Positions 199 through 61,402 of a DNA stretch of 64,000 bases are shown one piece after another; position 1 is the stretch's first letter, and each line of letters starts with the position of its first letter. Both the position numbers and the translations under genes were made by a program. A model generated the notes under the pieces. It worked only from the letters and a program-made list of their open reading frames with translations, searched no databases and was not told where the DNA came from. The stretch is from Amoebophrya sp. A120 (Eukaryota > Protista > Dinoflagellata): positions 1,399,776 through 1,463,775 of the forward strand of contig CAJINV010000018.1 in the NCBI GenBank assembly GCA_905178155.1, written 5' to 3'.

Positions 199-905
199 TC
201 TACGTGCCGGTCGTCATGTATCGAAAACCGGAAGACTACGCGCAGCAAACGCCGATCCTGGATCGCTAGTAGCGCGGCTTGATGTTGTGATTATATGGGT
301 ACTACTATCCTGTGCAAAAGTATCGTACTCGTAGTAATTGCAATCATGCATCACAAATATCCCTTTTTAGGTAAATCAGCATTAAAAATTCCATTTTTCT
401 TCTTGAAAAAATTTGTGATGCAATTTGTACTAGTACGATACTTTTGCAATGCATACTTACAACACCTGCACTTCACCCACGAAGATGTTGAACGACGTAG
501 ATCCACTCCTTTATTGTCTATGTCCTCTCCACCGCGAGGACCACGACCTCGGCCTCGGGTATCCTGAGTAAAAACGTCCCCACACCAGAGTCAAGCTGGG
601 AAATCTGCTAGACAAATCTGTCAGCTTTTGCTGCTGCGCATGACAGGTTTGGCCTCGCAGCGTAATCCTGTTTAGCTTGTTGAGCGGCATCACAGATCTA
701 GCATATCATGCTGATTGGAGCATCACAAATCCCACAACACGACTAGAGACCGCTTCTCATGGGTCTCCGCATGAGAAACATTTTCAGAGTGCAGATTTGC
801 ATTACAACTCTGGTGTGGGGACGTTTTTACTCACGATATCGGGTCGTGATTTGGCACTGTACATGCACCTACGAAGATCTGAGGTATGGAGAACTACGTG
901 ACTGA
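199..905 (+). CDS. Probable 3' end of an upstream gene interrupted by introners (frame unresolved)
   Basis: One frame stays open to TGA at 903-905 after removing elements 306-455 and 560-838 plus one repeat each; another frame (IYVPVVMYRKPEDY...) stops at 269; no recognisable domain. Confidence 0.3.
306..455. mobile_element. Introner/TIR element, family D
   Basis: TATCCTGTGCAAAAGTATCGTACT ... AGTACGATACTTTTGCAATGCATA; degenerate flanks ACTAC/CTTAC. Confidence 0.85.
560..838. mobile_element. Introner/TIR element, family B
   Basis: ~32-bp TIR TATCCTGAGTAAAAACGTCCCCACACCAGAGT; 5-bp direct repeat TCGGG. Confidence 0.9.
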
Positions 906-1823
906 CACTTAATTTTGACGAGGCAGCCGCTTCATTGGGCCGTTTTTTCTTTTCCGTTCTTGCTTGCATGATGGCACTACTTAGCAGCAATTGTCTCATC
1001 AAGAAACAAAAGCACACACTTGGATGCTTCTTCACACTGCTCAGCGCATGATCGTGGATCATGCTTCTTCACAGTGTTTCCACAAATTCGGTCAAAATTC
1101 AAATGCACGTTCGCCAGAAGTTGCGATAAATTGATCACTTCTCGTCCACCAGAGCAGCCGCAGGATCTTGGCCAAGGTTGTGTGAGTTCGGCTGCAAGCT
1201 ATGCAGCCGAACTTTTCAACAAAAAATTTGTTGATCACGATAAAGTATTATCTATCTATCATTCGGTGAAATTTAGTATTCTCAGTCGGTCGTGCAACCA
1301 CAACAACTTTGGGAACAATTAATATCATCATTCGGTGCAATTTTTGTAGGCTACAGAGTTAGTTTTTCGGTTATAGATTCATTTGATGTTGCGGATGCGG
1401 GATCATGATCAAGTGGAGAGGGAAATGAAAATGATGAAAAAGGAAACACAACGGAAATGGATCTTTTAGGGCCTTGAACTTTTGACGCCATGCCCAGGCA
1501 TGGAAAAAAAGAAAGAAAGATGACCGCGGAGGATTCGTTTTTGTTGATCCAAGAAATCAATGTTCATTCATGTATAGCAAAGTCATGATGAAAACGAAAA
1601 GTGTATAAGGTTTCCAGATCTACTTCACGTTCATGGATCCGTTCGAGAGCAAACGGAAAATCAAAATATTGAAATCTCGTGTTCTACTACCGCCACCAGG
1701 TTTTGAATAAAAGTTTCTAATCGACCTCCACTTTGTTTTGAACGGTTCTTTATTGCTCTCGCGAGAGGTCGTTTTTAAGTTATATTTTTTTCATACATCA
1801 TCGATCTATCATCAATCATTATT

Positions 1824-3347
1824 ATGTCGAAGGCAGCACGAAGAATGGATGTGGAAGACGGGAAGGCGGTCGCGTTTTCTCGCATGCAGGAAAGTGAAGA
1901 TGCCGGCCACGTAGATCTGGAACAACAGGGAGACACCGAGAGCAGCACAACTGCGGCGCTGCTTGGCGAGAATAAGAACATTAACCGCGAAGATAAATAT
2001 GAGCACGACCACGTAGAAGACCACCATTCGTCCTGTATGCAGCGACGGGCCGGGCTTCTGATCACGCTTCTTGCTTGTGCCACGGCTATTTTCGCCGCTG
2101 CTTTCGCTGTTTTTTTGGGTCTCTACGTGCAAGGAGCGAACCAGGTTGAGAGGCTCACGGAGCAGGTCGCGGAACTTAGGAGCGGCGGGGGGCCGAGCGG
2201 TGGCGGTACGGGGCCCAACAACGGTGGCGGTACGGGGCCCAACAACGGTGGCGGTGGCGGCCCCCCCAGCGGCCGCGACCTCAACAAAAACCCGATTCCG
2301 GTCAGTACCGACCAGTTGCCTCTGGACGCGCCGAGTGAGATGGTGGAGGTGTTCCGCGCGACAGACGCCGCCGCTGCCGGCAAGCGGGTCGCAGTATGCA
2401 TGGTCGGCGGCGTGCGGGCGTTGACTTTGCCAAATGTGTACAAGTCCATCGGGGACAACTTGCTTGGAAATTTGAAGGACACGGGCGTAGGCGTCGACCT
2501 GTTTTTCCTCGGATCCCTAACCCCCGCGGGTTGGAATGGTGGAGCGGCCTCCGCGGACACGATTAGCCAGCCGGATGACCCGCGGCTGCTGGCCGGGTTG
2601 GACTACTTGGAATCGAAAGTATCCACTTTTGCGAAGAAGCGGATCGTGCCGGATAGCACCTGCAGTGCCGTCGCAGATGTGATGGCCGACCAGGGGCGGG
2701 GTGTGAGGTCTTCTGCTCCCGGGGAAGCACCACGCTACGACGGTCCGCCCGTGCTGCCCGACTCGCTGTGCACAGACCGGGAGTTTTATAAATCAGCCTG
2801 GTTTCTGCAGATGATGTGGATTGACGCTTGCTTCGCGGACGTGGAAAAACACGCGGCGGCGCACAACGTGACCTACGACTTGGTGGTCCGCGCCCGGCCT
2901 GATACGGGGTTCCTGGAACCTCTGGACTGGAACGCGGCGGCCACGAGCCAGGAGTTTTCGGTCGCGCGAAACTTCCCCACCATGCCGGTGAGGGCATTTG
3001 CGAAGGATACGAACCGCGTCTGGGACTGGTTTTGGACGGCGCCGTTCCATTACATCCCTAAGTTCCGCACCGGGACGGTTGGCTGGTACTTAAAATACGA
3101 CTCTGCCACGAACGAGTTTCGGGACAACCTGAACGGCAAACATGGCCTACCTGACTTCGGCGCCTTCGGAAACTACGCGTTCTCTACCGTCGTCCGCAGG
3201 CCGTTCCCCGTGACGATTGTGCGCACGGCATCGCGCGCGCAGTGTGACTTTTTCCAGGGCTACAAGTTGCAGGGCTTCGAAGAAGTGGGCAGCAGACTGG
3301 TCCGTGACTGCGAGCAGAAGGAGAGAGACGCGTACTGGGGACTGTGA
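1824..3347 (+). CDS. Type II membrane protein, putative glycosyltransferase-like (paralogue 1)
   Basis: Intronless 507-aa ORF; one hydrophobic segment, Gly-rich stalk, luminal domain with RVAVCMVGGVRAL and YDLVVRARPD motifs; function is inference. Confidence 0.85.
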   Translation: MSKAARRMDVEDGKAVAFSRMQESEDAGHVDLEQQGDTESSTTAALLGENKNINREDKYEHDHVEDHHSSCMQRRAGLLITLLACATAIFAAAFAVFLGLYVQGANQVERLTEQVAELRSGGGPSGGGTGPNNGGGTGPNNGGGGGPPSGRDLNKNPIPVSTDQLPLDAPSEMVEVFRATDAAAAGKRVAVCMVGGVRALTLPNVYKSIGDNLLGNLKDTGVGVDLFFLGSLTPAGWNGGAASADTISQPDDPRLLAGLDYLESKVSTFAKKRIVPDSTCSAVADVMADQGRGVRSSAPGEAPRYDGPPVLPDSLCTDREFYKSAWFLQMMWIDACFADVEKHAAAHNVTYDLVVRARPDTGFLEPLDWNAAATSQEFSVARNFPTMPVRAFAKDTNRVWDWFWTAPFHYIPKFRTGTVGWYLKYDSATNEFRDNLNGKHGLPDFGAFGNYAFSTVVRRPFPVTIVRTASRAQCDFFQGYKLQGFEEVGSRLVRDCEQKERDAYWGL

Positions 3348-4351: not shown

Positions 4352-4402
4352 TAAACCTAGATGAAGCAACCACACGAGGTCGCGACCATGAGGACACGAG
4401 CT
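4352..4402 (+). repeat. Dispersed ~55-65-bp motif, copy 1 (others 6120-6180, 7441-7508; diverged copy 15826-15888)
   Basis: TAAACCTAGATGAAGCAACCACACGAGGTCGCGACCATGAGGACACGAGCT is near-identical in three places. Confidence 0.85.
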
Positions 4403-4555
4403 TTAAATTTAGACGAATCCATCTGGGCCTTCGAGTTTATTCTCAAGCGACAGTTTATTCAGATTGGAAAGAAAGTTTTTAAGCAGCTTAAAGGTGCACC
4501 CATGGGATCAAGTCCCGCGCCAAGACTTGCTAACCTAATTTTGTTTTCTCACGTC
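4403..4555 (+). mobile_element. Reverse transcriptase fragment, Penelope-like
   Basis: Translation QFIQIGKKVFKQLKGAPMGSSPAPRLANL matches the Penelope-type RT motif QxxGxPMGSPxSPxLANL; no YVDD motif follows, so it is a remnant. Confidence 0.65.
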
Positions 4556-6180
4556 ATCTCCGGCAGAAACCGCCGGGGCAGCAGCAGCAACTACGCCTAG
4601 TGGCGCTCTAAACAACGATCAGAAAACGATTAATAGTGTCTTCCGGAACAACAAAGATCACGCGTTCAACAAGAGGGGCCGGCCGTTGGCTTCGCCCAAC
4701 CTCAACAATGTGGACGACAAGCCTGCCCCCGCAGTTTCTTCTTCTACATCTTCTGCATTGCCCCCGGGTAATACAGCTCCGGCTTGGGGTGGAAAGGATA
4801 GCAAAGGACAAAAAGCAAACTTCTCCCACCAGCCGCCTGCGCCGAGCAATCACAAAAACAACAAAGGCCATGGAAGCAAGAATCCGAACCATAAACAAGT
4901 GATAGCAACTTCTGCCCCAGCTTCCAGTCCAGTTTTCCATACGCCGAGAGGCGACGGCCATTCTTCCCGCAATTCTAATTACCATTCCAAAGGACAGAAC
5001 CAGCAGGGGGGAGGTAACTTCAAAGGGCAGGGTTCTAGTCGCTATGCCTTCTCCCTTGGCGATAGCCGACCGCAAAACCATTTCAACCTGAATACGCAAG
5101 ATTTTCAGTCGCAAAACTCTTCGCATTCCAACTCCGTTCTGCGTTAGATAGTCACCGTTTCTGCTTCGCTTTTGCTTATGCTTGTCTATCTTACCTCCTT
5201 TTGCTTTCTACATGCGATCCTTGATAGAGGTAGCTCTCACTTTAAAAGTGATTTTTTACAAATTGGGTTCAAATAAAATATAGTCTGCTGATCCGGAAAT
5301 GCAGCTCGCATGTTCGTTTTCTTCATCACGTTTTTCGTTTTTCGTCAGTTTCAATCTTCTGAGAGAAACCAAGCAACGAAGCTGCGCTCTAGTGCACGCA
5401 CTAGATTATTTTTGCATCCGCTATGCCATGAGTCTTCAATGTCAGTCTAGGGCCACCAGCTCTTAAGGTCCACCTTTTATTTTTGCATGACATTTTGAAA
5501 AAAGTGGCAACTCAGCATCAGAAATTTATATTGTGATATGCATTGTTTTAGCTTCATCATAGAAAATGAAATGTAGAAAAGCTTATGTATATTTACTGCC
5601 TCCTGCATGCTTTAGCACTAGTCGATCAAATGGTCGCTAGCCTGCAATTCGTAAAGATCTATTTTCATCTGCGTGTTCTTCTTGCCGTCGTCTTGTGCTT
5701 CTTCATCATCGAGAAAATATCTGAGAGAAAAGTAATCGAGAGAAAATTGTAGCTGCATGCTACAGCGAGTTGCCGCGCCCATCCTGATTTCCGTTTGCAA
5801 GCAAGATATACATGGCTGGAGCCGCAGATCATGATCGATCTGCGCACCGTTGGCACACGGTGTGCAGGTTTAGGCCGGTGCTTAAGGCGCCAGTGAAGAC
5901 GTTCACATTTACCAGCTGACCACCAGAAAATGTACAAGCGAACACTTGCTTGCCTTATCCTCCTCTTCCTCTTCGCGCCCTCTTTAGGTTCCCCAGTTCC
6001 TCATTCCTCTCCAAAATAATGGAAAAAATCAGCGTGTTAGGTGTGCTTTTTTCAATTTTTTATTTTTTAGATTTATAGATAGTTCATGTTTACTTTGCTA
6101 TGCTATTGTTGTTCTTCTCTAAACCTAGATGAAGCTGCAACCACACGAGGTCGCGACCATGAGGACACGAGCTGTAGCAG

Positions 6181-6612
6181 TGAGTGTCAGTGCGTGTCAC
6201 TTTTACAGACCGGGAAGAGGTTTTGCAAAGTTTTGGAAATATCTTTCCCCGACGGTATTGTGTGACACGCACTCACTGCGTGTCAAGTGCGTGTCACTCT
6301 TCACGCCTGTATTCTCGCCACCAGCGATTCGGTAGTGCGTGTCAGTGCGTGTCACCAGATTTAGGTGCAAAAAATGACACGCACTGACACGCACTAGATG
6401 CGTGTCACTACCATACCGCGCAGGAGAGAGACAACGCCTGTTGGGTTTTGGTCTTCCCTGATGGTATACGGTGACACGCACTGAGTGCGTGTCACTTTTT
6501 GCACTATATTCTGGTGACACGCAGTGACACGCAATGCGGTACGCAAGTGACACGCAGTGTGACACGCACTGCGTGTCACTTGCGTATCACTTTGCGTGTC
6601 AACTGCGTGTCA
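6181..6612. repeat. Bidirectional GTGACACGCA/TGCGTGTCAC micro-repeat array
   Basis: Roughly 15-20 copies of the 10-mer in both orientations, within a block bounded by motif copies at 6120 and 7441. Confidence 0.85.
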
Positions 6613-8659
6613 CTTTTTGGACGTTTTGCTTGTCTGAGTGTGTTCATTTTTTTGCGCCTTTTCTTCCCGAATTCGCCTGCCTTTCTTTGCGCCACATTCT
6701 GCTTTTATGAACAACAGAAAATACGGCTTTTTTCTGTACTTTGGCAGCTTCAAGTTGAAGAAAAAGGCCGCGCTGTGTGCTTTGCTGCAGAAAGTACTCA
6801 AGACCGGCGCCCCCGCCCTGCAGGCGGGGGTTGGCCGGCATGGGAGAGAGCACGAAGCGCCCGGAAAAGGGAAAAGAGGCCTTTTCCTGAAACTTGGCGG
6901 CCCGAAGTTGCAGAAAAAGGCCTCCACATGATTGCCGCGAGCAAGTGCGCGCCCTTGTGCTGGCTTGGCTTCTTTGGCTCGGGCGATGCTTCCTCGCTAT
7001 TGTTGGGCGCGCAGCTGGGGGCGCGCTTGGGTGCGAGCCGGCTTCTTTGCTGCGATAGCTGCGAAGAAACGAAAAGAAGAGCTTTTTCTGCAACTTGGCG
7101 GCCCCAACTTGTTGAAAAAGCCTGTCAGGCGAGACTTGTTGAGCAAGACCGCTCCGCCTTTTGCTGCTGTCTGGCCCGAGGGGCCCGGTGACCTTCCGCC
7201 CCAGGCCCCCCCTCGCATTTGTGCCTGGCCGCTAACTGAGTCCTTTTCTGGCAACTTGCAGCTGGGAACTTGTCCAATTTGCGCGTCTTCTTTTTGTGTT
7301 TCTTGATGTGGGCTCTGGGGGCAAAAGGAACACTTCGAAAGCGCCACTCCCTATCGCAAGCGAGCGCCCCATGGCCATGGTAGTGGACATTTTGAGCGCG
7401 TTTGAGAAGCCACCCCGTTGCTAGGCCGATTTGACTCCGATAAACCTAGATGAAGCAACCACACGAGGTCGCGACCATGAGGACACGAGCTGTAGCAGCG
7501 AAACTCGTAACGCGCTTCCCACATAATTACTTTCTGCCATCAGAAACTAGGAACAGAGCTCGCTGGACGAGTGGCGCTCCAGAACGCCGACGGGCTCCTC
7601 TGCAGCTTAGGAGGCACTGCTAGCTTCGATTGGTAGTAGTTGTTCACCGCTTATGTTGGTCGTTGTACTACCACTACGGACCAAAAAGTAGATGAACCAA
7701 GACAGAGGGTCACCGTAGTATGTTGTAAGGAGGTCATGATCTTCATCTTTCTTCGGGTCTGATAACAGAACCACCATGCCGCGAAACCGCAAGCCAGATC
7801 ATAAATCTTGTGATGTGATGAAAGTTGTACAGCGAAAAAGCTCGTTGGAAAGCCACCGCTTGAAAGTACATTAGTCAGAGTTGTGAACACCATCTGTTTT
7901 CGGTTGTGTTTTGGAGCGATGCAGAAGTTCAGTTCTACTTTCAATTTGAATATAATAAATACGAACACGATCTCGCAGTCGCAGCAAGATGAAATGAATC
8001 CAAAGTACTTAGATACAGATTGAATTTCCATCGATCCTAGTGAAAGTGTTGAGCGCATTAACGATCATGGGCGAGGGTTCATCATGGTGTTTCCGTTCTG
8101 TGAAAATTCAAATGCATGTTCGTCCGAAATTGTGGTAAAATGATCATTTGGATTTGCCCACCCGATCAACTACAGGATCTTCGCTAAGATCACGGAGAAT
8201 CAATTTTTCTTGATCCAAAGTATGAAGGTGAGCAGGAACAGATACAGAGCAATGGAATATCATCCATCACCACCAGGGTTGACCACACGAACCGACGAAC
8301 CCGCATTTTTTGCACCGGCGTTTGGAGCTTCCTTCTTGGGAATTATACGCATTTCTTTACAATTAGATTTAAAGTACAACTCTTACACTTTGCCTTTGAT
8401 CTTTTTCTTGGACGGGATGGGAATTAGGTGGTGATTGGCGTTGCCTCTTACCCCAACCCTCGATAGACAGACGTGGGCTTTTCTACTCTTTTGAATAACT
8501 ACTGCTGTTCTTTTACTTATCGTTTTGCCGAGTCTATCAATCGACTTCCCCGTTGTTTTGAACGATTTTAATCCCCTGCCAGAGATCTATCTTTTCAAGT
8601 TAATTTTTATATTTTTTTGTAAATCAAAGTTTTACTTTTGGTTTTATTTCATTACAACA

Positions 8660-10033
8660 ATGTCGGAAGCAGCACGAAGAATGGGCAGCGAGGAGGTAGC
8701 GTTTTCTTCCTTGCAGAAATCTGAAAATGGAACCGGACACGTGGATCTGGAAAAGGGCGATGCTATGTTATTTCGGGACGGGTGCAGCACAACTGCGGCA
8801 CTGCTTGACGAAAACAACGGGGGAAAATATGAGCAAGAAAATCCTGACGAACATGAAGTAGACCACCACTCCTGTATTCAAAGACGTTCCGGGCTTCTGA
8901 TCACGCTTCTTGCTTGTGCCACGGTTATTTTCGCCGCTGCTTTCGCTGTTTTCTTGTGTCTCTACAACAGAGTCCCGATATCGGTCCGGACCGACCAGTT
9001 GCCTCTGGACGCGCCGAGCGAGATGGTGGAGGTGTTCCGCGCGACAGACGCCGCCACTGCCGGCAAGCGGGTCGCGGTGTGCATGGTCGGTGGCGTGCGG
9101 GCGCTGACTTTGCCAAATGTCTACAAGTCCATCGGGGACAACTTGCTTGGCAGGTTGACGGCCACGGGCGTAGGCGTCGACCTGTTTTTCCTCGGATCCC
9201 TAACCCCCCGGGGTTATAATGGTGGAGCGGCCTCCGCGGACACGATTAGCCAGCCGAATGACCCGCGGCTGGTGGCCGGGTTGGACTACTTGGAATCGAA
9301 AGTATCCACTTTTGCGAAGAAGCGGATTGTCCCGGATAGCACCTGCAGTACCGTCGCAGATGTGATGGCCGACCAGGGGCGGGGTGTGAGGTCCTCTTCT
9401 GCTCCGGGGGAAGCACCACGCTACGACGGTCCGCCCGTGCTGCCCGACTCGCTGTGCACAGACCGGGAGTTTTATAAATCAGCCTGGTTTCTGCAGATGA
9501 TGTGGATTGACGCTTGCTTCGCAGACGTGGAAAAACACGCGGCGGCGCACAACGTGACCTACGACTTGGTGGTCCGCGCCCGGCCTGATACGGGGTTCCT
9601 GGAACCTCTGGACTGGAACGCGGCGGCCACGAGCCAGGAGTTTTCGGTCGCGCGAAACTTCCCCACCATGCCGGTGAGGGCATTTGCGAAGGATACGAAC
9701 CGCGTCTGGGACTGGTTTTGGACGGCGCCGTTCCATTACATCCCTAAGTTCCGCACCGGGACGGTTGGCTGGTACTTAAAATACGACTCTGCCACGAACG
9801 AGTTTCGGGACAACCTGAACGGCAAACATGGCCTACCTGACTTCGGCGCCTTCGGAAACTACGCGTTCTCTACCGTCGTCCGCAGGCCGTTCCCCGTGAC
9901 GATTGTGCGCACGGCATCGCGCGCGCAGTGTGACTTTTTCCAGGGCTACAAGTTGCAGGGCTTCGAAAAAGTGGGCAGCAGACTGCTCGGTGACTGCGAG
10001 CAGAAGGAAAGAGACGCGTACTGGGGCCTGTGA
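8660..10033 (+). CDS. Type II membrane protein, paralogue 2 (no Gly-rich stalk)
   Basis: ATG at 8660 (MSEAARRMGSEE) aligns with the paralogue starts; C-terminal domain nearly identical to paralogue 1. Confidence 0.85.
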   Translation: MSEAARRMGSEEVAFSSLQKSENGTGHVDLEKGDAMLFRDGCSTTAALLDENNGGKYEQENPDEHEVDHHSCIQRRSGLLITLLACATVIFAAAFAVFLCLYNRVPISVRTDQLPLDAPSEMVEVFRATDAATAGKRVAVCMVGGVRALTLPNVYKSIGDNLLGRLTATGVGVDLFFLGSLTPRGYNGGAASADTISQPNDPRLVAGLDYLESKVSTFAKKRIVPDSTCSTVADVMADQGRGVRSSSAPGEAPRYDGPPVLPDSLCTDREFYKSAWFLQMMWIDACFADVEKHAAAHNVTYDLVVRARPDTGFLEPLDWNAAATSQEFSVARNFPTMPVRAFAKDTNRVWDWFWTAPFHYIPKFRTGTVGWYLKYDSATNEFRDNLNGKHGLPDFGAFGNYAFSTVVRRPFPVTIVRTASRAQCDFFQGYKLQGFEKVGSRLLGDCEQKERDAYWGL

Positions 10034-10814: not shown

Positions 10815-11081
10815 TATCAAATGTAAAAGTGTCTGGGTCTGGAAGAATAGAATGCAACTTGTCATGCTAAATCTGAAGCATGCAAAAATCTGTGTTGCAT
10901 GATTACCAAAAGTCGTGCAGTTTTGACCAAGTCGGGATGGAGTTTCTCATGCAGAATAGGCATGAGAGAGATCGCGCAGAATCTGTCATGCTAGGTCCTG
11001 CATTCCAGACCTCGTGGGTCATGGAAAAGCTGCATGACAAGTCGCGCACTCTTCCAGACCCAGACATTTTTGCATTTGATA
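10815..11081. mobile_element. Introner/TIR element, family A (intergenic)
   Basis: TATCAAATGTAAAAGTGTCTGGGTCTGGAAG ... CTTCCAGACCCAGACATTTTTGCATTTGATA; direct repeat CAGCA. Confidence 0.9.
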
Positions 11082-49600: not shown

Positions 49601-52600
49601 ACGTCACCGGGTACATCAAGGTAAGTACTATGAGCTCTTTGACAATACCAAAAATACAGAGCATTTATTTCGTTTGCTTGAGAAGAGCTGATACTGAAGG
49701 CAGCAGTTCTGCTTCTGCTCCTGCTGCTGGAGTGTACTGAAAGGTTGTTTTCTGTTGACCCAAGGATGAATACACAGTGTACAATTGAGAGTCACATCGT
49801 GCCAGAAAAATCTTTGAAGATTTGAATTGACAAAAATTGCAAAAAATCCTCAGGGCATCGGCGCGGAGCCGGGCATTTTTGAGGCGGGTATTTCCCTGCA
49901 GACGCTGTCCACCTTCCCGGGGTACATCATGTCGGTGGCTTACTATGCATTGCAAATATGTTGTCTGGGTCTGGAAAGATGTAACTTGTCATGCTGCATT
50001 TGCATACTACAAAAATTTGTATTCCATGGACAGCAAAACAAGGGTCCAGCTTTTGCCACGGCGAGAGGGCATTTCTCATGCGGTATAGGCATCAGGAAGC
50101 CCTCGCAAAATCTGTGATGCTAGGGCGTGCATCACTGACATCACGAGTCATGCAAAATGTGCCTGACAAACCTTGCATCCTTCGAGACCCAGACACATTT
50201 ACACTCGATACTTACGGGGGCATGTTGATCCTGGTCCAGGCCATGTCCACGATTATTTCCCGCATGATGCGGTTCACGCGAGAAGGGAAACGGATCGAGT
50301 TCGAGATTTTTTTCAACGTTTTTGCGCTGGTTTTCACGGTGTTGCTCCAGTACTACTTTACGCTACCCGTTTCCGTTGTCGGCACGGAACTGACACCCAC
50401 ACCCTTATCAAGTACAAATATGTCTGGGTCTGGAAATTTGTGATGCTAAATTGCGCACGATGAAAACACTTCCTCATGCAGGAAAGCATGACAAGTCTGC
50501 ACAGCGCTTTGTCATACGAACTCCGCATCAGAAATTGCGTTTTTGTATAACCACGCGCGAGGCTGCCACTTTTGTTGGTCATGCAACACAGATTTCACAG
50601 GAATGCAAGACCAGCATTACAAGTTCCAACTTTCCAGACCCAGACATATTTGCATTTGATAACCCTGGCTGGTCGACCACATGGCCCCGTTGAGCTTTCT
50701 GCACGAGTGGTGGCAGATATGAGAGTGCACAGCTCCCCCTCCCCCTCATTTGTATGGCATGAGCAGCAATACAAACGCTAGCGCGCATGAAGTCTATGCA
50801 TGACAAATCTACTTATGGTTCTAATGTAGTGCTGTTTGCTGGGCTTCCGGACTTTGTCATGCAAACAGTGCCAGCACAAGGCAGCGACTGGATTCGGCAA
50901 CTTGCATGACAAATGAGGGGGGGTGGAATTATGCACTGTCATAGCAGAGTTACGACATGGAAATGGTCCGGTTGATCTACGAAATCACCTTCTCCCAGTT
51001 CGTGGTTCTCGCCGTGATTCCTGTCGGCTCCTACGACTGCGTTTTCTACCTCGGCTATCCTGAGTAAAAACGTACCCACACCAGAGTCAGGATGGGGATT
51101 TTGCAACACAAACCTAGGAGTTTTGTGAGTCACGCATGACAAGTTGCGTTCTGCAGTGTAGTGCAGGTTAGCAAGTGCAGCCGCATCACAGATTCATCTG
51201 CTCATCCTGTTCACAGCATCACAAATTCCAAAACACGACTGGAGATGGCTCTCATAGGGATGCGCATTACAAGTCTTCCTGTCTTTGCAAATCTGCATTA
51301 CAACTCTGGTGTGGGGACGTTTTTACTCAGGATATCGGCAGGTTCGTGACCCGCCTGTTCAGCACGAAAACCTGGTCGGTCCGCGACGTGGAGGCGTTCT
51401 TCGACTATGACCGTGCACAACTCCCCCTCCCGCTCATTTGGCATGCAGAAGCCCAAAGCCAGTCGCTTCCTTGTGGCACTGTTTGCATGACAAATTTTGG
51501 AAGCCCGAACAGTACTGCACTAGACACACAAATTTGTCATTCATAGACTCCACGCGTGGTGGTATTTGTATTGCTGTTCATGCTATACAAATGAGGAGGA
51601 GGGGGAGTAATGCACTGTTATATCGAGCCGACCGAGTGCAGCATCCCGCAGGACTACGCACAGAACACGTTCTTCCTCGTTTGTGTCTTTCTCCAGCTGT
51701 TTATGGCGGGCGCGAACTCGTACACGGTACTGATCTTTATCGCGATGTATGCTTTGTGGGAGCTCGTTTCCCAGCGCTACTGCTATCTGCGGATGGCGAT
51801 GCCCTTGCCCATCGCTTCCTCCAGTGTGGACTCCGCGGCGCAGTTTAATCTCGGCGTCTGGGTGTCCATCATCTTAGGCGCAGTGCTCGGGCGGTGGGCC
51901 CAGAAGCTGCGGCGGAACGGCCGGTCCCGGTTGTATCCTGTGCAAAAGTATCGTACTCGTAGCAATCGCAGTCATGCATTACGAATTTCTCTCTCAAGTC
52001 AAATCCGCATTACAAATCGCATTTCTCACCACGCCGAGGAAACTTGTCATGCGATTACTTATACATTATATTAATGCGAAAAAAGAGGTAGACAGAGGGT
52101 CCCAGAGAGGTGGCCGAGAGGTAAAAAAGAGGTCGACAGAGGTAGAAAAGAGGTCGACAGAGGTGGAGAGGTGGCGCGGGACCCCGTTCGAGAGGGTCCG
52201 CGAGAGGGCGCGCGAATAAGGCCCGCAGTAAGGGCCCACCCTTAGGCGCCGCCTAAGTGGCACAGAGGGTGCAGAGAGGTCAAAAAGAGGGGGCGCGAGA
52301 GGTCGACAGAGGTGGCGAGAGGTGGCGCGAATAGGGGGCGACCTCTCGCGGACCCTCTTGGCCACCTCTCGGCCACCTCTGTCGACCTCTACCCGCGAGT
52401 ATAGCCGGACTATTAGCGGGGACCCCCAAAAGAGGTCAAAAAGAGGGTCTGCGAGAGGTCTGCGAGAGGGTAAAACACAAAGAAGCGGGCGCGAATCCGC
52501 ATGGCACTGCCCATATTTGGCACTGCAGGCCATTCCTTCGCGGAGCTGTTTTGTTCGGCGCCTTTCCGCGCCATCCTCTCGCGCACCCTCTCGCGCCACC

Positions 52601-55600
52601 CTCTTGCGCCACCCTCTCGCGCACCCTCTCGCGCCACCCTCTCGCGCTACCCTCTCCCGCCGGGCGGCTTCTGTTCGCCCCCGGTGTTCTTTGCAGCTGC
52701 TCCCTGCGCAGAGCGCCCACAGGCGCGGGAAGCGCGCAAGTGGTCCTGCGGGTTGGCGAGGCGCAATATGTTTCGTTGTGCATAGGCCCGCGGGGTTGTG
52801 GTCCGATCGGCAAACAGTCTTGCCCCGGCCCAACAGCCTTGCGCTCCGGCGGCAGCCGGAGCATGGCTAGTTATATACTAGTGCGATGCTTTTGCATTTC
52901 ATAGGTTGTGCTACGACGCCAAAATTGATACCGAGCACGGGAGCAGGGACAACAGCTACTGCAACGACGCGGGAAACGCGTTCTGGGACCAGGTGTGGCT
53001 GTATGTTGCCGGGTCGGCTCTGTGCGTGGCGTTGTTTGTGTTCTCGTGGACTTATTTGCAGCAAAAAATTCTCCGCAACTGGGGTCAACGGAAGTTGGTG
53101 GAAAAAATCTCGGCCGAGATTATGGAGGAGCAACTCGACATTGATTCTGGGGAAGATGAAACGATAACTACGAACAACAAGAACACCTTTATTTCTCGTC
53201 GGCAGACGGCGAGTACTAGAAATAAAGCTTCTTCATCTCCCAGCAACGTAACGGTGTTGAAACTTCAAAAGAACCTCACGGCAATATCCTGTGTAAAAAC
53301 GTCCCCACCCCATAGTCAAGATGGGGATCTCGCAACACAAATCGAAAAGTTTTGGGAGTCAAGCATGACAAGTTCGTCTCCGTATCGTAGTGCAGTTTAG
53401 CAAGTACAGCCGCAACACAAATACATCTACTCATCCTGTTTACAGTATTACAAAGTCCAAAACGCCATTGGAAATGACTCTCATGGAGATACGCATATAC
53501 AAATCTTCCTGTAACTGCAAATCTGCATGACAAGTATGGGGTGGGGACGTTTTTACTTGGGATAGGCGAAAAAAAGTAGTAAAGAAAATACGGTTAGCAC
53601 ACCATTCCCATTGCCGTCGCCGGGCCGAGCTAGTGCGGAGGGCGAGGCGGGTCCATTTTTCGGAATGGTGGAAAGTGGCTACGACCCACGAGAGTCGGAA
53701 AACAACGAGGTGGAAGATGTGCAAGAGATCAATGAACAGCGAGCTGCAGGGGACGACCCCTCGGCCTCCAGTGCAGGTAGCAGGATCATAAGAGACAAGA
53801 ATGTCACTAAGCCTCACACTCGGCATTCCTGGATTCCAGAGTACTTGCTCGACGGCGATGAAACAGATGTTGAAGTGATCGACGACAACGATGAAGCGAC
53901 CGATTTTGAGAACAACAGCGACGGGGGGAGAAACGAAGATTCGAAACAGACCAATCGGAAAATGATAAACAGCAAGAAACGCCCGATAATCGGCACAGCA
54001 GAAGGATCCTCATCCTCTCCTTCACGGGTGGACCAAAGCGCTAGCAATGCCATCACTTCCACGCTTGCCAAGGTGAAAAACTTCACCCATACCACCATTT
54101 TTGCGGGACGAGGGCCCAACAAAAATCTTCCGCACGGAAAGAGACATCGCGCTACGCACAACGATGTTGAGCGACACGTGTCCTACAACTACCTGAACGC
54201 CAATCCGGGACACTGCTTGAAAGCCTGGTTTGGCTTGCTGGAGGAGGAATTGCAATTTTGCGACAACCGGAACACGGAGTTTTACAAGTCCCACATTTCC
54301 TTCAAGCGCTACAGTGACGTTCCCTGTTACTTCCAGCGCGGCAAGGAGTACCTGTTTGACCAGTACCATCAACGGGGGTACATGCAGTCGCGCAAGTACC
54401 ACATCGGTCAGGAGCACGAGGATTTCTGTCCGTGTTACCCCTGCAGGCGGAAGGAAGACATGATAACCACGGGGCGAGAGGCGGTGGCCATCGGGGGGTA
54501 TTTCAACGATCAGCGGGTGGTCGTGGGGAATGTGGTCGAAGCCGGAGAAGACAACGAAAACGATCTCGCGAGGAGAAACAACATCGTCGATAATGCGGGA
54601 TTGCTGGGAGCGCAGACGTATGACGAGGCAATCGACGACTTGGAGCGAATGAGTATTTCCTCCGGAGGGGGCGAAAACAGTGACGCTATGGATTTGAAAC
54701 TTGCCGAATTGAACGAGAAGCGCACGACTTCGCGGTTGTCGTCTCTGGCGAAGGCTGGTGGAAGTGGTTCCCCGCCGAGCGGCGGGGCGCTTGTGGACTG
54801 GTTCACAAAGACCCTTGGAGCTGCCGGTTTATCTTCTGCAAGCTCAAGTAGACCACCGCCCAAAGGGAGGCAGGGGAGAGGGACGCGACTATTTGCGACG
54901 CGTGGAACTGAGGCGCCAGCCGCGCCAGCAGGTGGAGGTGCAACGACGGGAGGTAACACTGACAGGAGCAATGACGAGGACCCGCCGAATACTTCTTCTA
55001 GTAGTGCTGCTGCTAAAGCAAAAGCGAAAGCTCCCTCTCTTGCTGCCGGGAAGGAAAAAGTTCTTGACGGCGCTACTTCGGATTCCGCAGCGAAGTTGTC
55101 TGCACAGGCCAGAGCAGCGGACTTTTATCGAGCTGCTTCATCTCAGCAACGGAAAGAAAAGGGAGGGGAAATAAAGGTAAAGAAAACTTCATCACCAGCA
55201 GCGGCAAACCAAAAAGAGAAACTTCTGACGAAGAATAAAGTCGTGCCAGGTGTTGAAGCTGATGCAGCGCTCGCAAGAGCCGACGAAGAGGAGCAAGATC
55301 CTGACCAAGTATCAAATGTAAAAATGTCTGGGTCTGGAAACTTGTGATGCTGGGTGGCGTCTCATGATGAGGCGACAAATGCTGGCTCAGCATCACAAGT
55401 TTCTGCGCGTCCCGGTGTTGCCTATTCTGCATGACAAACTGCGTTTCTGCATCACAGAAAAATGGAGCTCTTGGGTAACGTGCATGACAAATTTAAGAGT
55501 CATGCCAGACAAGCATGACAAACATGCATTCTCCCAGACCCAGACATTTTCACATTTGATACCAAGGCAGTAGCGGTGATCGTCTGCACCAGACTCCGCA

Positions 55601-56825
55601 AGCGCAGGGCAATGCTACAGGTGCGAAGAGCGAAAAGAACACTTCTAGCAGCAAAAACTCGACGTCCGGTAAAAAAAATGAAAATACTAGCAGCAGTTCC
55701 TACCTCTACTACCAGCGGACTGCGACAGTGTCCTCTGTCTCTGCGATGACGACGCCACGACCACCTTTCTCAACCAGCACCACACCGCGACAGACTGCAG
55801 ATGGGGGCGTTCTTTCAACCAGCGATACACCACGAACCAAGAACATGATGACTGCAGAGGAAACGAATCATGTTTCACCTGCACCAGAACAAGAGATTCC
55901 GCACGAGCAGGAAGGTTCATCTCTAGTACAAGCATCCCCAATTACATCCGAGAGAAGTACTACAAATAAACCGCGACAAGATCACCGGCCCTTGCCTATC
56001 GACCTGGTGAATCACGGAGTTTTGAAGTCGGAAAAGAACAACGTCGGTAGGAAAAATTTCCCCGGAGTGGAAGTGCCACTGCCACCAAAAGCAGCTCCAG
56101 GAGGTCGAGCTGCGCCGAACAGGAGCAATGTGCAGCAGCAGCAACAGCAGCAGCAGCAAGGGACCACGACTCACCTTCACGAGGACCACCACGAGCAGCT
56201 TTTGCACTCGGAATCTTCTGGAAACGAAGCCACGAGGGAGAAGATTATTCACCTGGACCATCACCTGAATAGCGACCCGGAAGAGCAGGAGGTCCATCTG
56301 GACAGTCATATCGATAGCGACGAGCATGGTCACTTGCGCGTTCTTCGTCGTGCTGCAACGAACAAAAACCGCGAGGATCACCCGGAAGTCGTGCACTTGG
56401 ATCAGCACATCGACAGTGACGAACACCAGTATCTCCGCGTTGGAGGCGGTGATGTCGGTGTGAAGAAAAGTAACTCGAAGGGCGTGGCTTTGGCTAAGCC
56501 TAAGACTTCGCCTCCTTCGCCGTCATCGAGTCGTCCCAACAACAAGGTTGGTGGTAACAAAGAACTGGCTGGCAGATTGCAGGGGTTCGCGGCCGCAAGT
56601 AGTACAGCCGCAGGCAGTTCTGCTAAAAACAGGAACAGGAACGAGGCCGCAACTGCTGCGTCAGTAGGTGCACAAGGAGTTTTGACAGAACCCCCACTTC
56701 TAGGGGCTGGTGGCGGTGGCAACTACAGTAAGGCCAGCGCACCCGCTGCAGAACAGGGGCCAAGAAGCGCGGCGTTTGGCCAAGAAGGGTCGCAAGGCTC
56801 GAGCGTGGAAACGCTGGAAGAGTGA
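43698..56825 (+). CDS. Large multipass membrane protein, OSCA/CSC1/TMEM63-like
   Basis: Signal-like N-terminus, CxxC-rich extracellular segment, GVGFNLYF, TMDRFAIRMTGF, SIAYDF and SGTVFVV motifs, many TM segments, long low-complexity tail. Removing 13 TIR elements and GT-AG intron 49621-49853 gives one frame of about 2,930 aa. Confidence 0.65.
46948..47212. mobile_element. Introner family A
   Basis: TIRs; direct repeat GACCG; removal joins IRMT-GFTPE. Confidence 0.92.
47280..47506. mobile_element. Introner family H (TGT-starting)
   Basis: TGTTACAATCTCAAACGTT...AACGTTTGAGATAGTAACG; degenerate repeat TCAGA/TTTGA; frame restored. Confidence 0.85.
48218..48497. mobile_element. Introner family B
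   Basis: TIRs; direct repeat GGGAA; body like 560-838. Confidence 0.92.
48565..48815. mobile_element. Introner family A
   Basis: TIRs; direct repeat CGTAC. Confidence 0.92.
49262..49534. mobile_element. Introner family A
   Basis: TIRs; degenerate repeat GGGTT/CCGTT; frame restored. Confidence 0.88.
49944..50210. mobile_element. Introner family A
   Basis: TIRs; direct repeat CTTAC; body like 18573-18838. Confidence 0.92.
50406..50661. mobile_element. Introner family A
   Basis: TIRs; direct repeat ACCCT. Confidence 0.92.
50718..50943. mobile_element. Introner family F
   Basis: TATGAGAGTGCA...TGCACTGTCATA; direct repeat GCAGA. Confidence 0.92.
51056..51334. mobile_element. Introner family B (inverted relative to 21305-21570)
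   Basis: TIRs; direct repeat TCGGC. Confidence 0.93.
51406..51622. mobile_element. Introner family F (inverted relative to 50718-50943)
   Basis: TIRs; repeat TCGAC/TCGAG. Confidence 0.9.
51934..52903. mobile_element. Introner family D carrying a nested insertion
   Basis: Family D ends; direct repeat GGTTG; removal joins RSRL-CYDAK. Confidence 0.9.
52057..52870 (+). mobile_element. Nested non-autonomous Helitron-like element
   Basis: 3' hairpin GCTCCGGC-GGCA-GCCGGAGC (52843-52862) then CTAG|T; AT-rich 5' end; internal AGAGGT/ACCTCT repeat arrays; left boundary uncertain by a few bp. Confidence 0.65.
53285..53564. mobile_element. Introner family B
   Basis: TIRs; repeat GGCAA/GGCGA; frame restored. 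Confidence 0.9.
55310..55561. mobile_element. Introner family A (inverted relative to 23986 and 27950 copies)
   Basis: TIRs; direct repeat CCAAG. Confidence 0.93.
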
Positions 56826-57461
56826 AAATAGAGCTGCAAGAACTTTGTAGTTTCCAAGAACTGCTGGCAACACTCGTCTATTGAACTTGTTTCAAAATCA
56901 AACACACTATGCTTGTGTTTCTTGTTTTTCCACTTGCTATGGAACTGTAGGATTGACATCCATTCTCAAGAACAACTCAACAAAATGAAAGATAAAGATG
57001 ACCGCTGCCGCGAACAGATGTAGAAGTTGCGGGTACTGTAGAATCGTTCTAGTACTCGTGTACGAGGACCACGGAGTAGCATCGTCGAAGCAGCGGCTGC
57101 CTCATTTCGTTGCCCTGTTCTCAAGTCACAAAGCAAAAAATCTCGCGGTTCTGGATCTCTTTTTTAAAGCATGATCACCAAAAAGTAGAAAAAGCTGTGG
57201 ATGAATTGTTTTGCTGCGGCGCAGCACGAGATCCTGATCGAAAGGTTCGCTCGATCGCGGTGTTTCTGTTTCCTTTCCTGGTGCTGTTTGTGCTTTTTTC
57301 GGTTCTGCCTTTTCTGGTTCCGGTACCTACCTAACAAAGTGCATTCAAGTAAGTACTTTATTCACTTTTCCGAGGACTTGATACCGTCTCACAGAAGGTG
57401 TTTATCTTCTGGAAGACTTCGGCATCAGCATCAGGCTCAAGAGCCACTGCTTTACTGCGAC

Positions 57462-59517
57462 ATGATGCGAAATAAAGAACAAACTTTGCGCGCTGCAACA
57501 AGCGTGTGGCTGTGGTTGACACCCCGACACTTCTTACCGCCGCACGAAATATTTGAACCAGGTGCAGGAGGTCTCAATGCCGTCGCTGCGTACCGAGGGG
57601 CAGATGTGCGGTCGATGGACGTCACAGGAGATGAAGAAGTAGACTACGAAGCGCAACAAGGGCAAGACCCGTGGCTCGAAGAGGACCAAGCGCGCGAGCA
57701 CTCACAAGCCGCAAGAAAGGCTGCAGGGCGTGAAGACGATAAAAGCCACACTGGTACTAGCGCCCCCCTTGATCAACAGCAGCACAAAAACGAGGAATTA
57801 TTCGGCGAAGTTTCCGGGGAGCTGCGTCAAGCACTGCTCAGACGCAGGGTCAGGGCGGATTCGACAAACCCGGAAGTAGAGTGTCCTGTAACTACTGGCA
57901 CACGACGACCAGGAGATAGCACAACGGACGGCGCAGCTGTCGATGAATCTTCAACAGCATTTTCCTCCTGTAACAAGAAGACCTCCTACTTTTGCTCGTC
58001 CCCATCTGATGTACAACTCCTAGCTACGCCAACTGCATCCGGCGACGACGAAGCACACCATCGTCAGCTCCGCCTCCAGAACTACCCGCACCAAGACGAA
58101 ATCACGCCGGAACTACAACTCCGTTTACAAAAACAGCTGGACCGGGCAAGAACTCTAGGACCCCAAACGGGGACGCACAACTGTCTCGCAAAACTGTACG
58201 ACAAAGACGAGATCGTGCAGGGTGACCGGCCCAGTGCCAAGGTGGTACTCGGGGAGGAAGCGTCTTCGGAATTGAAGCAGAAATTAAACGCGCGGAAAGC
58301 GGTGATGGGAGAATTGTTGTCGAATATTAAGGGGACTAAGGATAGAAATGATGGTGTAGAAGTTGTAGCAAGTGCACGCAGCTGCAAAGAGGAAGAGCAA
58401 CACAAGGAGGTAGAAGACTCAGAAATGGTCGAGCAAGATAGAAATTCTCGTGCTGTTGAAGATCATACAACTTTTTCTCCGCCAGCTCGTCTTCACTTTT
58501 CGCTTACACAAGAAGAAGCACGGGCGGAAATCATGGAAAAACACACAACTTCTGTTGGTCCACATACGTCGGCGCTTTCTACTTCTTCTCTTTCATCGAA
58601 GAAACCTCCAGTAGCAGCAGTTTCTCCAACAGCACCGTCTTGTTCTACCGACGTACGGTCGTTGGCTTTGCTGTCCAGAGATGATTCTACTCGTAGTAAT
58701 CGACTGCATAAAAACTACTCAGGGAAAGAAACCAGCTCGTCAGAAACGACCACGACGGGGCTTGTTCTCCCGAGTGGGAGAACGAAGGGCCGCTCGGTTT
58801 CCTTTCAAATTCAAACCGTTGAAGATGCGAAGAAAAGCAGCTCGTCTACTAGTACTCCTGCTGCACGAGAACTTGTAAGCGCGGAGCATCTGGCCCCTTC
58901 TTCACCCTCCACTTCGGATATTAAAGGTAGCGCAAGAACCAGCAGTCCAACGAACGCCGTTGCATTTTCGCCTGACGGTTCCGGTTGCTACCACCTCGTT
59001 GACCCTGGGTATGTGGAAAACGTGAAACGGCAGATGCACGATTTGGAATCCGCGGGCGAACCCTGGACGGAATTGATGAATCTGTTGACGTATCCTGTGC
59101 AAAAGTATCGTATTCGTATAAATGCAAGTCTTGCATTACAAATTTTTTTCTCAAGGTAAATCCGCATTACAAATTTTAATTCTCATGCTGAGGGAATTTG
59201 TCATGCATTTATACGAGTGCGATACTTTTGCAGTCCATATTCCGGCTTTCAAACAGGCGGAGCAATTGCGGAAGATAAAGGAGTTCGCGACGATTCCGGA
59301 AGAGCACAAAAAGCTGCAATTTCTCTACATCGTGCACCGGGAGCGGTTTTCGGATCTGCGGCTTCAGTTTTTAGACGAAGAGATGGAGAAATTGATCGAA
59401 AAATGCGTCAAGGGCGAAGAGCAGACAGCTGGTGGTTCACGCGCAGTAGACAAGCGAAGACTACAGTTACAAGACGAGGAGCACATGATCCTCGGGAAGG
59501 ATAGAGAAAAAAAGTGA
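57462..59517 (+). CDS. Hypothetical protein (low-complexity, one introner)
   Basis: Long ORF joined in frame to the terminal exon by removing 59091-59239 plus 5 nt; true start uncertain (ORF open from 57201). Confidence 0.65.
59091..59239. mobile_element. Introner family D
   Basis: TATCCTGTGCAAAAGTATCG...CGATACTTTTGCAGTCCATA; degenerate repeat TGACG/TTCCG. Confidence 0.88.
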
Positions 59518-60478
59518 TCTTTTCTACTTTCTCAAAAGAGAAAGAGTTCATGATGTTGTCCGAGTTCGCATTCGCTTTCTGACGAGGACCTACTTTTCCG
59601 GCTCTTCCTTGTGTTGCAGACATATCATATTAGACGTGCGTTAATCGGATAGACCGATGACTCGATGATTTTTGGTTTTTTGGAAAATTGTCGCAGCGCG
59701 TACCGGTGGTCTTTTTGTGCACGACGCCTGACGTGTGCTTTCCACACTGACTTTGATACAGCGTTAAGGAAAGCATCTTCAAAAAAAGACGCAAGCGCAT
59801 GCGTTCAATGTGAGATCAAATTCAAAAAGCCACGAGTTTGTTGTTCTTATCGTAGAATAGACTGGAGCTAAGAAAGAAGTTTTTGCTCCTGTAATGGCAG
59901 CCTTCAACATCGGTCACGAATGTCGTCCGCGCACTCGCTGCTGTGTATCCAAGTATAAAACCCATAAAGAAAAAGTCGCATTTGCATTTCAGCACTAGTG
60001 CCAGCGCTACACTACGACTCCTGCTCGGTGGGGAAATAAAAGGAAAAAGAAAGTCACTAAAGTAAGCATACTTTTCCGAAACGAAAGGAAGCTCGTATGG
60101 TTCTTTTGGGTTAACACTCGACTAGTCGTGCAATTCATTAGTTGTATCAACGTGCAGGAAACTGAGCAGACAAAGCAGACGAAAGCGCAACATCGTACAA
60201 CAGGAGAGCAGGGCGTCGAAGTTTTTAGCAATTCATCGTTCATCTCAGTAGACATAGAGATAGAGCCTAAACAAGAAAGCCGTATCTTCAAGAGTCTTTT
60301 CCGGGCAAAAAAACTGATGCAGGTCTACAACTCGTCAAGGTCAAACTCCCAGTGAGAACACGACAGTATTGTTGTTTACAAATAAACGCTTAGGTGGACG
60401 ACTCCATTGTAATATTAAATCCCAAACGCCTTTTAGTTTTTTTTTCTGACCAGCAAGACCTCCCAAAAATCCACAAAC

Positions 60479-61402
60479 ATGGCCGAAGAGGAGCAAGTGG
60501 AGGTGCCCGTGCCGGCTGCCCCGCTGGCCGAGGACGCGCTCCCTGTCCGCGAGGAGTTTCACTCGTCCCTGTTCACCGAGCTGAGCACTGCCGAGGCCAA
60601 GTTTCGCGCCGGCGTGGAGAAAAAGGCGGCAAAGGACGCGGAGAGCGAGGGGGGAGACGGGCTGCCGGTCGCGGAGTCCAACCTGGTGTACGGCGAGCTG
60701 GGGCTGAAAAACCTGTGCGAGGTGCTCAACTGCTGCAAGATATCCACAGTAAATTTCCCGTACACGTGCAAATGCAGTCTCTGCATGACAAAACTTGCCT
60801 TCAATCCTAGTCCAGCATGACAAGTTGGACTCTGCAAGGTAGCGCAATTTGTCATGCATTTTATTGTACATGTACAGGAAATTTACATTGCATACAAGAC
60901 CGTGGGGCGCGTCTTCCCCGAGACCTGCACCTTCGTGGACTGTGGCAGCGGGCTGGGCAAGCAGGTGCTGGGCGCGGCGGTGTTGGAGCCCAAATTCGCC
61001 AAAATCGTCGGTATCGAGCTGCTCGAGGCCTACGACAGCATGGCGCAGCAGGCCGTCGCGAAGTACACCGGCCTCGAGGAGCTTCCGGACGAGAGCATCA
61101 CGAAGGCGGCGGACGTGAGCTGTGTGAAGGGCAACTTTATCGACGAGGCCGCGGCGTTTTGCACTCCGGACAACCAGGTCCTCCTCGCCGCGCTGTCCCC
61201 GTGCTACTCGGAAGAAACGCTGACGGGTCTGTGTGAGGCCGCGAAGAACGCGCAGGTGGGGAGTCTGCTGGTAACCCTAACCCGGGCCGCGCCGGACATC
61301 ACGCTGTGGGAGCCGCTGCACATCGCCCCGCTCGAGTGCCCCTGGGGAATCGCCACAATGTTCGTGCAGGAAAAAATCGCCATGCCGCCGGCGGAGGAAT
61401 AA
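60479..61402 (+). CDS. Class I SAM-dependent methyltransferase, DOT1-like domain
   Basis: LVYGEL, FVDCGSGLGK and GIELL motifs; 254 aa after removing the introner. Confidence 0.8.
60741..60894. mobile_element. Introner family I
   Basis: TATCCACAGTAAATTTCCCGTACA...TGTACAGGAAATTTACATTGCATA; direct repeat CAAGA; removal joins NCCK-TVGR. Confidence 0.92.

Follow-up and report, generated by a model that had tools for sequence, protein, structure and literature searches.

What unites introners that seem to share almost nothing in sequence? The question is raised by a 64,000-nucleotide stretch of the genome of Amoebophrya sp. A120 (contig CAJINV010000018.1, positions 1,399,776 to 1,463,775, forward strand), which we call the window and in which coordinates are counted from the first letter. 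The window carries long genes on its plus strand, KNTC1-like, AAA-ATPase and DOT1-like frames among them, and these genes are broken by a few GT-AG introns and by many elements of 150-970 bp. Each such element starts with TAT and ends with ATA, has imperfect terminal inverted repeats (TIRs) of 25-55 bp, and is bordered on either side by a 5-bp direct repeat (target-site duplication, TSD). This anatomy matches that of the published A120-type introners, which the available part of their description gives as a TAT start, seven variable bases, an A run and short direct repeats, in elements of about 240 nt that have non-canonical boundaries, form many families and are removed from transcripts (PMC7789003). 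Our elements likewise have A at TIR positions 11-15 at frequencies of 0.69-0.88 (17 groups; the TAT itself was fixed by the search). Being short, non-coding, multi-copy and equipped with TIR and TSD, they also resemble miniature inverted-repeat transposable elements (MITEs), the non-autonomous TIR DNA transposons. An earlier note on the window had claimed that a single internal 9-mer marks every introner family and is read by one trans-acting factor. Here we ask if this word is a real feature of the elements, and what is likely to read it.

A word shared by introner families

We delimited 36 elements in the window independently of the motif, on the basis of TAT..ATA ends, TIR and 5-bp TSD; TIR/TSD searches supplied most of them, and a few were recognized by eye from their family likeness. 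Together they make up 10,487 bp, leaving a remainder of 53,513 bp. A metagenome scan with the TIR of one family returned 152 stretches, reduced to 147 loci (L001-L147; 602 kb), in which 345 held-out elements were found on TIR and TSD alone. The 80 metagenome loci listed are contigs under one accession prefix and so do not represent an independent taxon, and the family whose TIR was searched is over-represented (177 of 371 clustered copies). Clustering yielded 32 clusters, or 17 groups once these were merged by TIR.

The commonest 9-mer of the window is TTGTCATGC/GCATGACAA, with 50 copies. Forty-eight of these lie within elements and two in all the remaining DNA, an enrichment of about 120-fold that bears out the earlier note, and first-order Markov resamples of the element DNA contain a mean of 0.29 copies (maximum 3 in 200 resamples). 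The shorter word TGT[ACG]ATGC (TGTVATGC) occurs 110 times inside elements and 7 times outside. De novo expectation maximization on element interiors, with 28 nt cut off each end, returned the motif as the top 10-mer and the top 12-mer, and gives the full word as YYTGTVATGC. When a position weight matrix trained on the window was applied to the held-out metagenome elements (score >=10), at least one site was found in 344 of 345; TGTVATGC is present in 337 and the exact 9-mer in 234. Site density is 14.2 per kb in elements and 0.37 per kb outside (overlapping loci were left unmerged). An element carries about 2-6 sites. The motif had no match in Rfam. It may resemble the Oct/Sox composite and ApiAP2 TGCATGCA words.

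How general is the word? The four examples cited in the earlier note each carry two to five strict copies, including 47280-47506, which does contain sites, although the true element spans 47265-47521. The assertion that every family has several copies in both orientations was too broad: the exact 9-mer is found in 31 of the 36 window elements, at least two TGTVATGC in 32, and both orientations in 22, and within each window copy of the 280-bp family all sites share one orientation. Rarity outside elements is confirmed by the seven TGTVATGC found there. The near-matches at 38648, 38681 and 38712, on the other hand, look like a relic and not like noise: they are three TTTGTSATGT sites (38648-38721, plus strand) spaced 33 and 31 bp apart within a GT-AG intron. 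A motif pair 31 bp apart at 41756-41796 (plus strand), also in a GT-AG intron, is likely a relic as well. It is possible that these two introns (38637-38758 and 41648-41830) are old introners that have turned canonical. Of the two 9-mers outside called elements, one falls in a degenerate element and the other in the 31-bp pair of a GT-AG intron. The families were also said to have unrelated bodies, and indeed, once TIRs are trimmed and motifs masked, the interiors of different families align at about the level of shuffled sequence (null mean 18, maximum 36).

The sites are arranged in a regular way. Spacing between same-orientation sites shows a sharp peak at 31-33 bp. Of the 32 clusters, 19 have a tandem pair at this distance, where permutations give 1.2 on average and never more than 5. 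With one copy taken per cluster we count 18.1 pairs versus 5.9 in the best null window, and under a looser threshold that admits TIR sites the pair is found in 13 of the 17 TIR-merged groups. The sequence of the spacer is free (mostly <0.35 bit). Because 31-33 bp corresponds to three turns of B-DNA, this spacing points to a protein on double-stranded DNA. Tandem spacings other than 31-33 bp gave no convincing periodicity. A set spacing to the termini is also evident, as inward-pointing sites cluster 31-33 and 41-42 bp from the element end; those at 20-60 bp keep a phase of about 10 bp (R 0.68, p<0.001), and convergent pairs have a period of 10.5 bp (p ~0.01). The smallest elements, of 109-113 bp, amount to a TIR, one pair and a second TIR. 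Four minimal introners of 109-112 bp, each with two long TIRs and one pair (L144:380-488, L016:1259-1367, L020:7805-7913 and L041:1008-1119), are ideal test substrates, and neither the window nor the metagenome loci gave a convincing case shorter than 109 bp. In six long cargo-bearing elements, 24 strong sites lie in the outer parts and 0 inside, so that the word behaves as a subterminal repeat: short, repeated near the ends and missing from cargo.

Constraint and the likely reader of the word

Is the word kept by selection, or is it what common descent has left behind? We surveyed mismatches in 22 subfamily alignments (274 copies) against a leave-one-out consensus. The seven core positions are mismatched in 472 of 9,547 cells (4.9%) and the spacers in 6,665 of 37,000 (18.0%), a 3.6-fold constraint, and the core is below the spacer in 22 of 22 subfamilies. 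Mismatch at the degenerate V position is 19.7%, and at the bases flanking the motif 14-21%. Common ancestry is probable, given the TAT…AAAA ends and the 5-bp TSD found in all families, and this favors taking the word for a functionless ancestral leftover, or else for a compositional by-product. We give that account hardly any credence. The constraint does not extend past the motif and leaves out its V position, which at the level tested refutes it; moreover, the flanks are unalignable, site layouts differ between and within families, and dinucleotide controls contain 0.3 copies versus 48. Common ancestry, which the earlier note had named as a possible explanation, therefore does not suffice. 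The motif is a real, selected feature, and the alignments support reading it as a shared cis-code under selection rather than as the product of ancestry alone.

The word had also been said to be more conserved than the TIRs. Across families this is so, as the TIR beyond position 15 holds little information common to the groups whereas the motif is near-universal, and it is also so relative to the TIR average, whose mismatch is 8.8% (in copies chosen for good TIRs). The terminal TAT/ATA and TIR positions 11-13, however, are more conserved than the motif.

If the motif were needed after insertion, one might expect it to mutate less than its neighbors in old copies, as the earlier note had suggested. 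As a measure of age we counted TSD mismatches in 474 full-length copies found by homology, of which 331 have an exact 5-bp TSD and 443 at most two mismatches; the slopes do not include the 31 copies with at least three. With TSD age, the core goes from 5.2% mismatch through 7.0% to 9.4%, and after stratification core and spacer rise by the same amount, 0.024. The core-to-spacer slope ratio is 1.07 in conserved columns (95% confidence interval 0.57-2.45; 424 copies, 19 subfamilies, leave-one-out consensus) and 1.49 in all columns (0.71-4.9), so the expectation was not borne out. The age slope of TAT/ATA is smaller, with an interval that takes in zero. Since core and spacer decay about equally fast in inserted copies, the motif appears to be guarded during copying, and not site by site once an element is genic.

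Taken with the helical spacing, these patterns make it reasonably probable that YYTGTVATGC is a double-stranded-DNA binding site of the mobilizing protein, most likely of a transposase's DNA-binding domain. We infer that one single factor binds the motif. Protein copies on one face of the helix would help to assemble a paired-end complex, and copying would continue only for elements that still have about one pair or more. TIR interiors and spacers could meanwhile drift into many “families”, all of them served by one machine. A near-universal internal word with set geometry would thus unite the families under one mobilizer, and the motif pair offers a concrete 41-bp bait for pull-down as well as a search key for an autonomous element. 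The TIRs themselves contain a weakly motif-like stretch (best register positions 4-13; 83 of 740 ends score >=9), as is expected if a single protein reads both.

The reader might instead be a protein of the host, one that binds DNA or has an architectural role (a bending factor or a chromatin protein, for example) and that the elements recruit for transposition in the manner of a recombinational enhancer, with the transposase reading only TAT…AAAA. This alternative is rather unlikely, but it predicts the same selection pattern; the free orientation and variable position of the sites are enhancer-like, one word recurs across families with very different TIR interiors, and no transposase was found in the loci. 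The word is nevertheless rare outside elements and unpaired there, with no sign of ordinary host use, and the TIR likeness at positions 4-13 also speaks for the transposase. A second alternative, that the word is an internal promoter for transcription of the element, which would be copied via RNA, we regard as very improbable: repeated factor-like sites at set spacing and an LTR-like (long terminal repeat) 5-bp TSD agree with it, but the elements have TIRs and neither poly(A) tail nor LTR, the sites have no common orientation relative to either end, and apparent footprints are seen at the DNA level (see below).

Several observations weigh against a transposase as the reader. Sequence data alone cannot separate a transposase from a host protein. 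Site position and orientation differ among families, and in 13 of 32 clusters most members are without a 31-33 pair. Among several periodicity tests, those on sites >60 bp from the end, on outward sites and on element length gave no significant phasing. Pair spacers are not depleted of length changes, which occur there at 7.6 per kb and in the remaining spacers at 7.4 per kb. The limits of the age test are wide, and a redundant role, in which any one or two of five sites are enough, would be invisible to it. Finally, we found no transposase family in the 112 longest of 369 filtered open reading frames (ORFs) of the loci (Pfam; ~0.6 Mb), nor any transposase in the ORFs of ten long elements (by eye) or in 13 window ORFs (Pfam), and Farhat et al. 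found none in the strain whose elements match ours, according to the available part of their report (PMC7789003). A transposase motif search in 241 ORFs of the element-stripped loci likewise returned none.

Where might the mover reside? Copia/Gypsy-like (integrase-like) ORFs are reported inside Amoebophrya TIR introners in the available part of PMC12130899, and these would be obvious candidate movers here. The searched family's TIR is absent from viral contigs. A search for the motif pair elsewhere gave 44 viral and 57 prokaryotic matches, none of them like the elements by blastn, so a viral or bacterial source is unsupported; among the matches listed, most are in ORFs, tandem repeats or REP-like palindromes. 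Five of the bacterial palindromes (L196, L206, L223, L240 and L244) start with the same TTTGTCATGC letters, which is probably a coincidence.

Removal from transcripts

We asked how the elements leave the transcripts and if the motif has a part in it. That runs X3-X6, from two samples of a single study, are RNA is a guess, but their contigs do skip a GT-AG intron. Among the joints listed, they skip that intron and 14 elements in 18000-34800, and four further readable junctions fall in 43500-61500. All 18 readable junctions skip the element length plus 5, and the sole cut that fits all 18 is 1 nt before TAT and 4 nt after ATA. This -1/+4 cut is fixed by the zero-homology junction 21303/21575 and is bounded by TSD mismatches at other sites. 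It takes out exactly the element and one TSD, whatever the junction sequence (20658-34464 and 46942-60895). The rule predicts an exact 1,269-nt stretch of an X3 contig over eight elements and one GT-AG intron, and, applied to 43733-56826, it gives an open frame of 2,906 codons through 14 elements and one GT-AG intron; gene models can thus be corrected directly. X1 contigs pass from unique sequence into elements, which shows that the elements are present in DNA. Template switching by reverse transcriptase was rejected as the source of the skips, since junction 21303/21575 has zero homology and obeys the same -1/+4 rule. An intron cut by this rule starts N-U-A-U, like GUAU with a free first base.

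Could the motif be a redundant code for splicing or excision? A factor sitting on the DNA, or on folded RNA, would then flag the element to be taken out during transcription, and any one or two sites would do. In favor of this, at least one site is kept in 306 of 306 exonic elements, removal is precise without GT-AG, and U1 is reported missing in these organisms (PMC7789003, available part). The orientation of the sites tells another story. Among the 306 elements called exonic by codon scoring, 711 sites face one way on the transcript strand and 674 the other; exonic elements with a single orientation divide 24 to 23, and nearly all subfamilies occur in both orientations. The single-orientation 280-bp family is removed either way, as seen at 21305 versus 53285 and, by transcript contig span, at 48218 and 51056. 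The lack of strand bias, together with skipping of a single-orientation family both ways, argues against a single-stranded RNA code, and same-orientation sites are unable to pair mutually. In addition, the cuts are tied to the TAT/ATA ends though motif positions vary, an inserted copy's core decays as fast as its spacers, core mismatch rises with age in exonic copies too (5.2, 7.0 and 7.7%), and exonic and non-coding copies are alike in core mismatch (5.7 vs 6.6%). We therefore consider a splicing code unlikely: the motif shows neither the transcript-strand-only reading nor the retention by the host after insertion of an intronic splicing signal, although redundancy could hide a role. Of the trans factors that the earlier note had put forward, a transposase or other DNA-binding protein fits best, and a splicing or RNA factor is not supported, given the 711 versus 674 sites and the spacer-like decay.

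Tested in both orientations, the TIR stems fold well (z -9.0 and -2.8). G-U and A-C mismatches in these stems number 163 and 135 (p=0.12), so there is no signature of RNA pairing, and an RNA hairpin formed by the stems is plausible and unproven. RNA removal appears to be a job separate from mobility, one for which the motif is apparently not needed; mobility would be the task of the internal pair, and splicing that of the TAT/ATA ends with their -1/+4 cut.

A different kind of trace is left within copies in L001-L147 and the window. Of 232 private insertions, 98 are 3 bp and 43 are 6 bp long. The 3-bp insertions consist of a 2-bp repeat and one free base in 66 of 98 cases (~15 expected), and the 6-bp insertions contain a repeat of at least 5 bp in 25 of 43 (~1 expected). 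Private insertions per copy grow with TSD age (0.27, 0.38, 0.70). The 5+1 form matches the TSD length, which suggests that DNA cutting has left in-frame footprints; alternatively, the insertions may reflect a general bias of repair. An example is seen in the right TSD of 21305-21570.

A broader and more speculative picture, which we hold to be possible yet improbable as a whole, would join these observations. A single undescribed integrase-type cut-and-paste system, made so as to go unnoticed by genes, might underlie the many introner “families”: the helically phased internal pair would license DNA mobilization, and RNA excision at -1/+4, blind to sequence and fitted to the 5-bp TSD, would be measured from the bare TAT/ATA ends. 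Excision or abortive cutting at the DNA level would leave in-frame 3-/6-bp footprints that keep adding protein residues, helping to explain the rapid protein evolution of the host.

Known systems and the inventory of the window

Do known systems show a comparable arrangement? The available part of the A120-type description (PMC7789003) reports about 2,000 introner families with no unifying signal, argues against mobilization by a transposase, and does not describe a shared internal motif, whereas the word found here is near-universal; splice sites are given there as variable relative to the hairpin, and here the -1/+4 cut is fixed. The motif, its spacing and the -1/+4 rule are not reported in the available parts of that genome paper, PMC11282704, PMC12130899 or bioRxiv 10.1101/2020.10.14.339549, nor in what a wider search returned; figures, supplements and subscription papers could hold them.

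The word resembles the subterminal repeats of hAT elements (Ac/Ds AAACGG, Hermes), which, in the portions of PMC3260210 and PMC6188088 available, are short words repeated inside the TIRs in variable number and orientation. The Ac/Ds hexamers are bound by transposase and shared even by the otherwise unrelated Ds1 (PMC3260210, same portion), which is likewise spliceable to judge by titles cited there, and Lemi1 binds subterminal motifs of the MITE Emigrant (PMC1636448, in part). Our elements differ from hAT and Emigrant in having a pair at three helical turns, other termini and a binding that is putative, and their TSD is 5 bp, not the 8 bp of hAT. The end motifs of IS607/IS1535 offer a second likeness, being direct repeats of ~9-10 bp in helical phase, 20-60 bp from the end, that nucleate a paired-end complex (PMC6188088, as far as available); unlike the elements here, IS607 lacks both TIR and TSD, is moved by a serine recombinase and has motifs one turn apart. 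By termini, the nearest superfamily is IS3EU/GingerRoot, whose TA..TA ends are shared by the TAT..ATA elements here. As given in the accessible text of PMC10045372 and PMC6839031, its TSD is usually 6 bp; ours is 5 bp in DNA, with transcript skips of length plus 5, so we do not assign the elements to it. GingerRoot TIRs are also longer (100-150 bp vs ~25-55 bp, same text), and no integrase-like DDE transposase turned up in the ~0.6 Mb of loci. Euglenid nonconventional introns, finally, are TIR-bounded, with non-canonical junctions at set stem offsets and TSD-like repeats, but have a CAG/CTG TIR core and other offsets, and an internal phased motif is not mentioned in the available part of PMC11282704.

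The elements of the window are as follows, without assigned strand. At its left edge, the right part of a cut introner (1-198) has motif pairs at 31/63 and 115/147, 32 bp apart. A 150-bp-family introner at 306-455 has pairs at element positions 43/74 and 107/138, with the last site inside the TIR. The 280-bp family is represented by 560-838 (one-orientation sites; TSD TCGGG), by 11892-12170 in the opposite orientation, and by an older copy with one strict and four weak sites (19136-19437). The 260-bp GTCTGGG-TIR family includes 10815-11081, 18573-18838 and a degenerate copy at 19483-19787 (pair 19523/19554). A degenerate 320-bp-family copy at 11599-11840 (nhmmer E 1.7e-54) holds, in its pair 11665/11697, one of the two 9-mers counted as outside, and a truncated end at 12211-12274 keeps a single site at element position 32.

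Transcript contigs skip most of the introners that follow. At 20664-20925 and 20983-21244 the length plus 5 is skipped. The 280-bp-family copy at 21305-21570, which has the unambiguous junction 21303/21575, carries six sites, all TTGTVATGC on the transcript strand. Also skipped are 23457-23769 (320-bp family), 23986-24237 (pair 40/71), 24309-24470 (150-160-bp type), 24523-24787, 27950-28213, a 230-bp-family introner with TAC..ATA ends (26335-26564) and a 906-bp introner with cargo whose strong sites are near its ends only (30424-31329). Two of the earlier examples belong here as well: 25925-26232 (310-bp family; five sites, pair 123/155) and 32355-32663 (305-310-bp family, as is the skipped 34157-34461; pairs 128/160 and 225/256). 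At 32860-33127 the cut is bounded by a TSD mismatch at position 5. Farther right, contigs skip 53285-53564 (280-bp family), 55310-55561, 59091-59239 (150-bp family; pair 43/74) and the earlier example 60741-60894 (154-bp family; pair 43/75 and a site at 108).

For other introners the skip is inferred. It follows from transcript contig coordinates at 46948-47212, 48565-48815 and 48218-48497, a 280-bp-family copy with all sites GCATBACAA on the transcript strand; nearby, 47265-47521 has four sites. It follows from the span of a transcript contig at 49262-49534, 49944-50210, 50406-50661, 50718-50943 and 51406-51622 (the last two of the 230-bp family), at 51056-51334 (280-bp family; six same-orientation sites, 48/79, 128/161 and 209/240), and at 51934-52903, a 970-bp introner with repeat-rich cargo and sites in its first 120 bp only. 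The AGAGG-rich cargo of the latter is shared, at ~81-84% identity, with L019:505-1608, a long introner of a different TIR family, which suggests exchange or capture of cargo. An apparent 6.2-kb element proved to be two separate short elements.

The window also holds repeats and genes of other kinds. A dispersed repeat that starts AAACCTAGATGAAGC occurs at 4353-4400, 6121-6620, 7441-7500 and 15827-15880 and does not score as the introner motif; after one of its copies come many repeats of GTGACACGCA type, facing either way. At 1824-3347, 8660-10033 and 13108-14840 lie three paralogous genes in tandem, all intronless and with a transmembrane segment; the first has a weak DUF7796 match, and two of the three contain a 21-bp Gly/Asn-rich repeat. 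Outside genes, at 16780-17400 and 62100-63900, are tandem or palindromic arrays, made of AGCTTCTCGTAGAGCCGGGGA units and TCTAGA palindromes, and an AT-rich region of GATTCG repeats.

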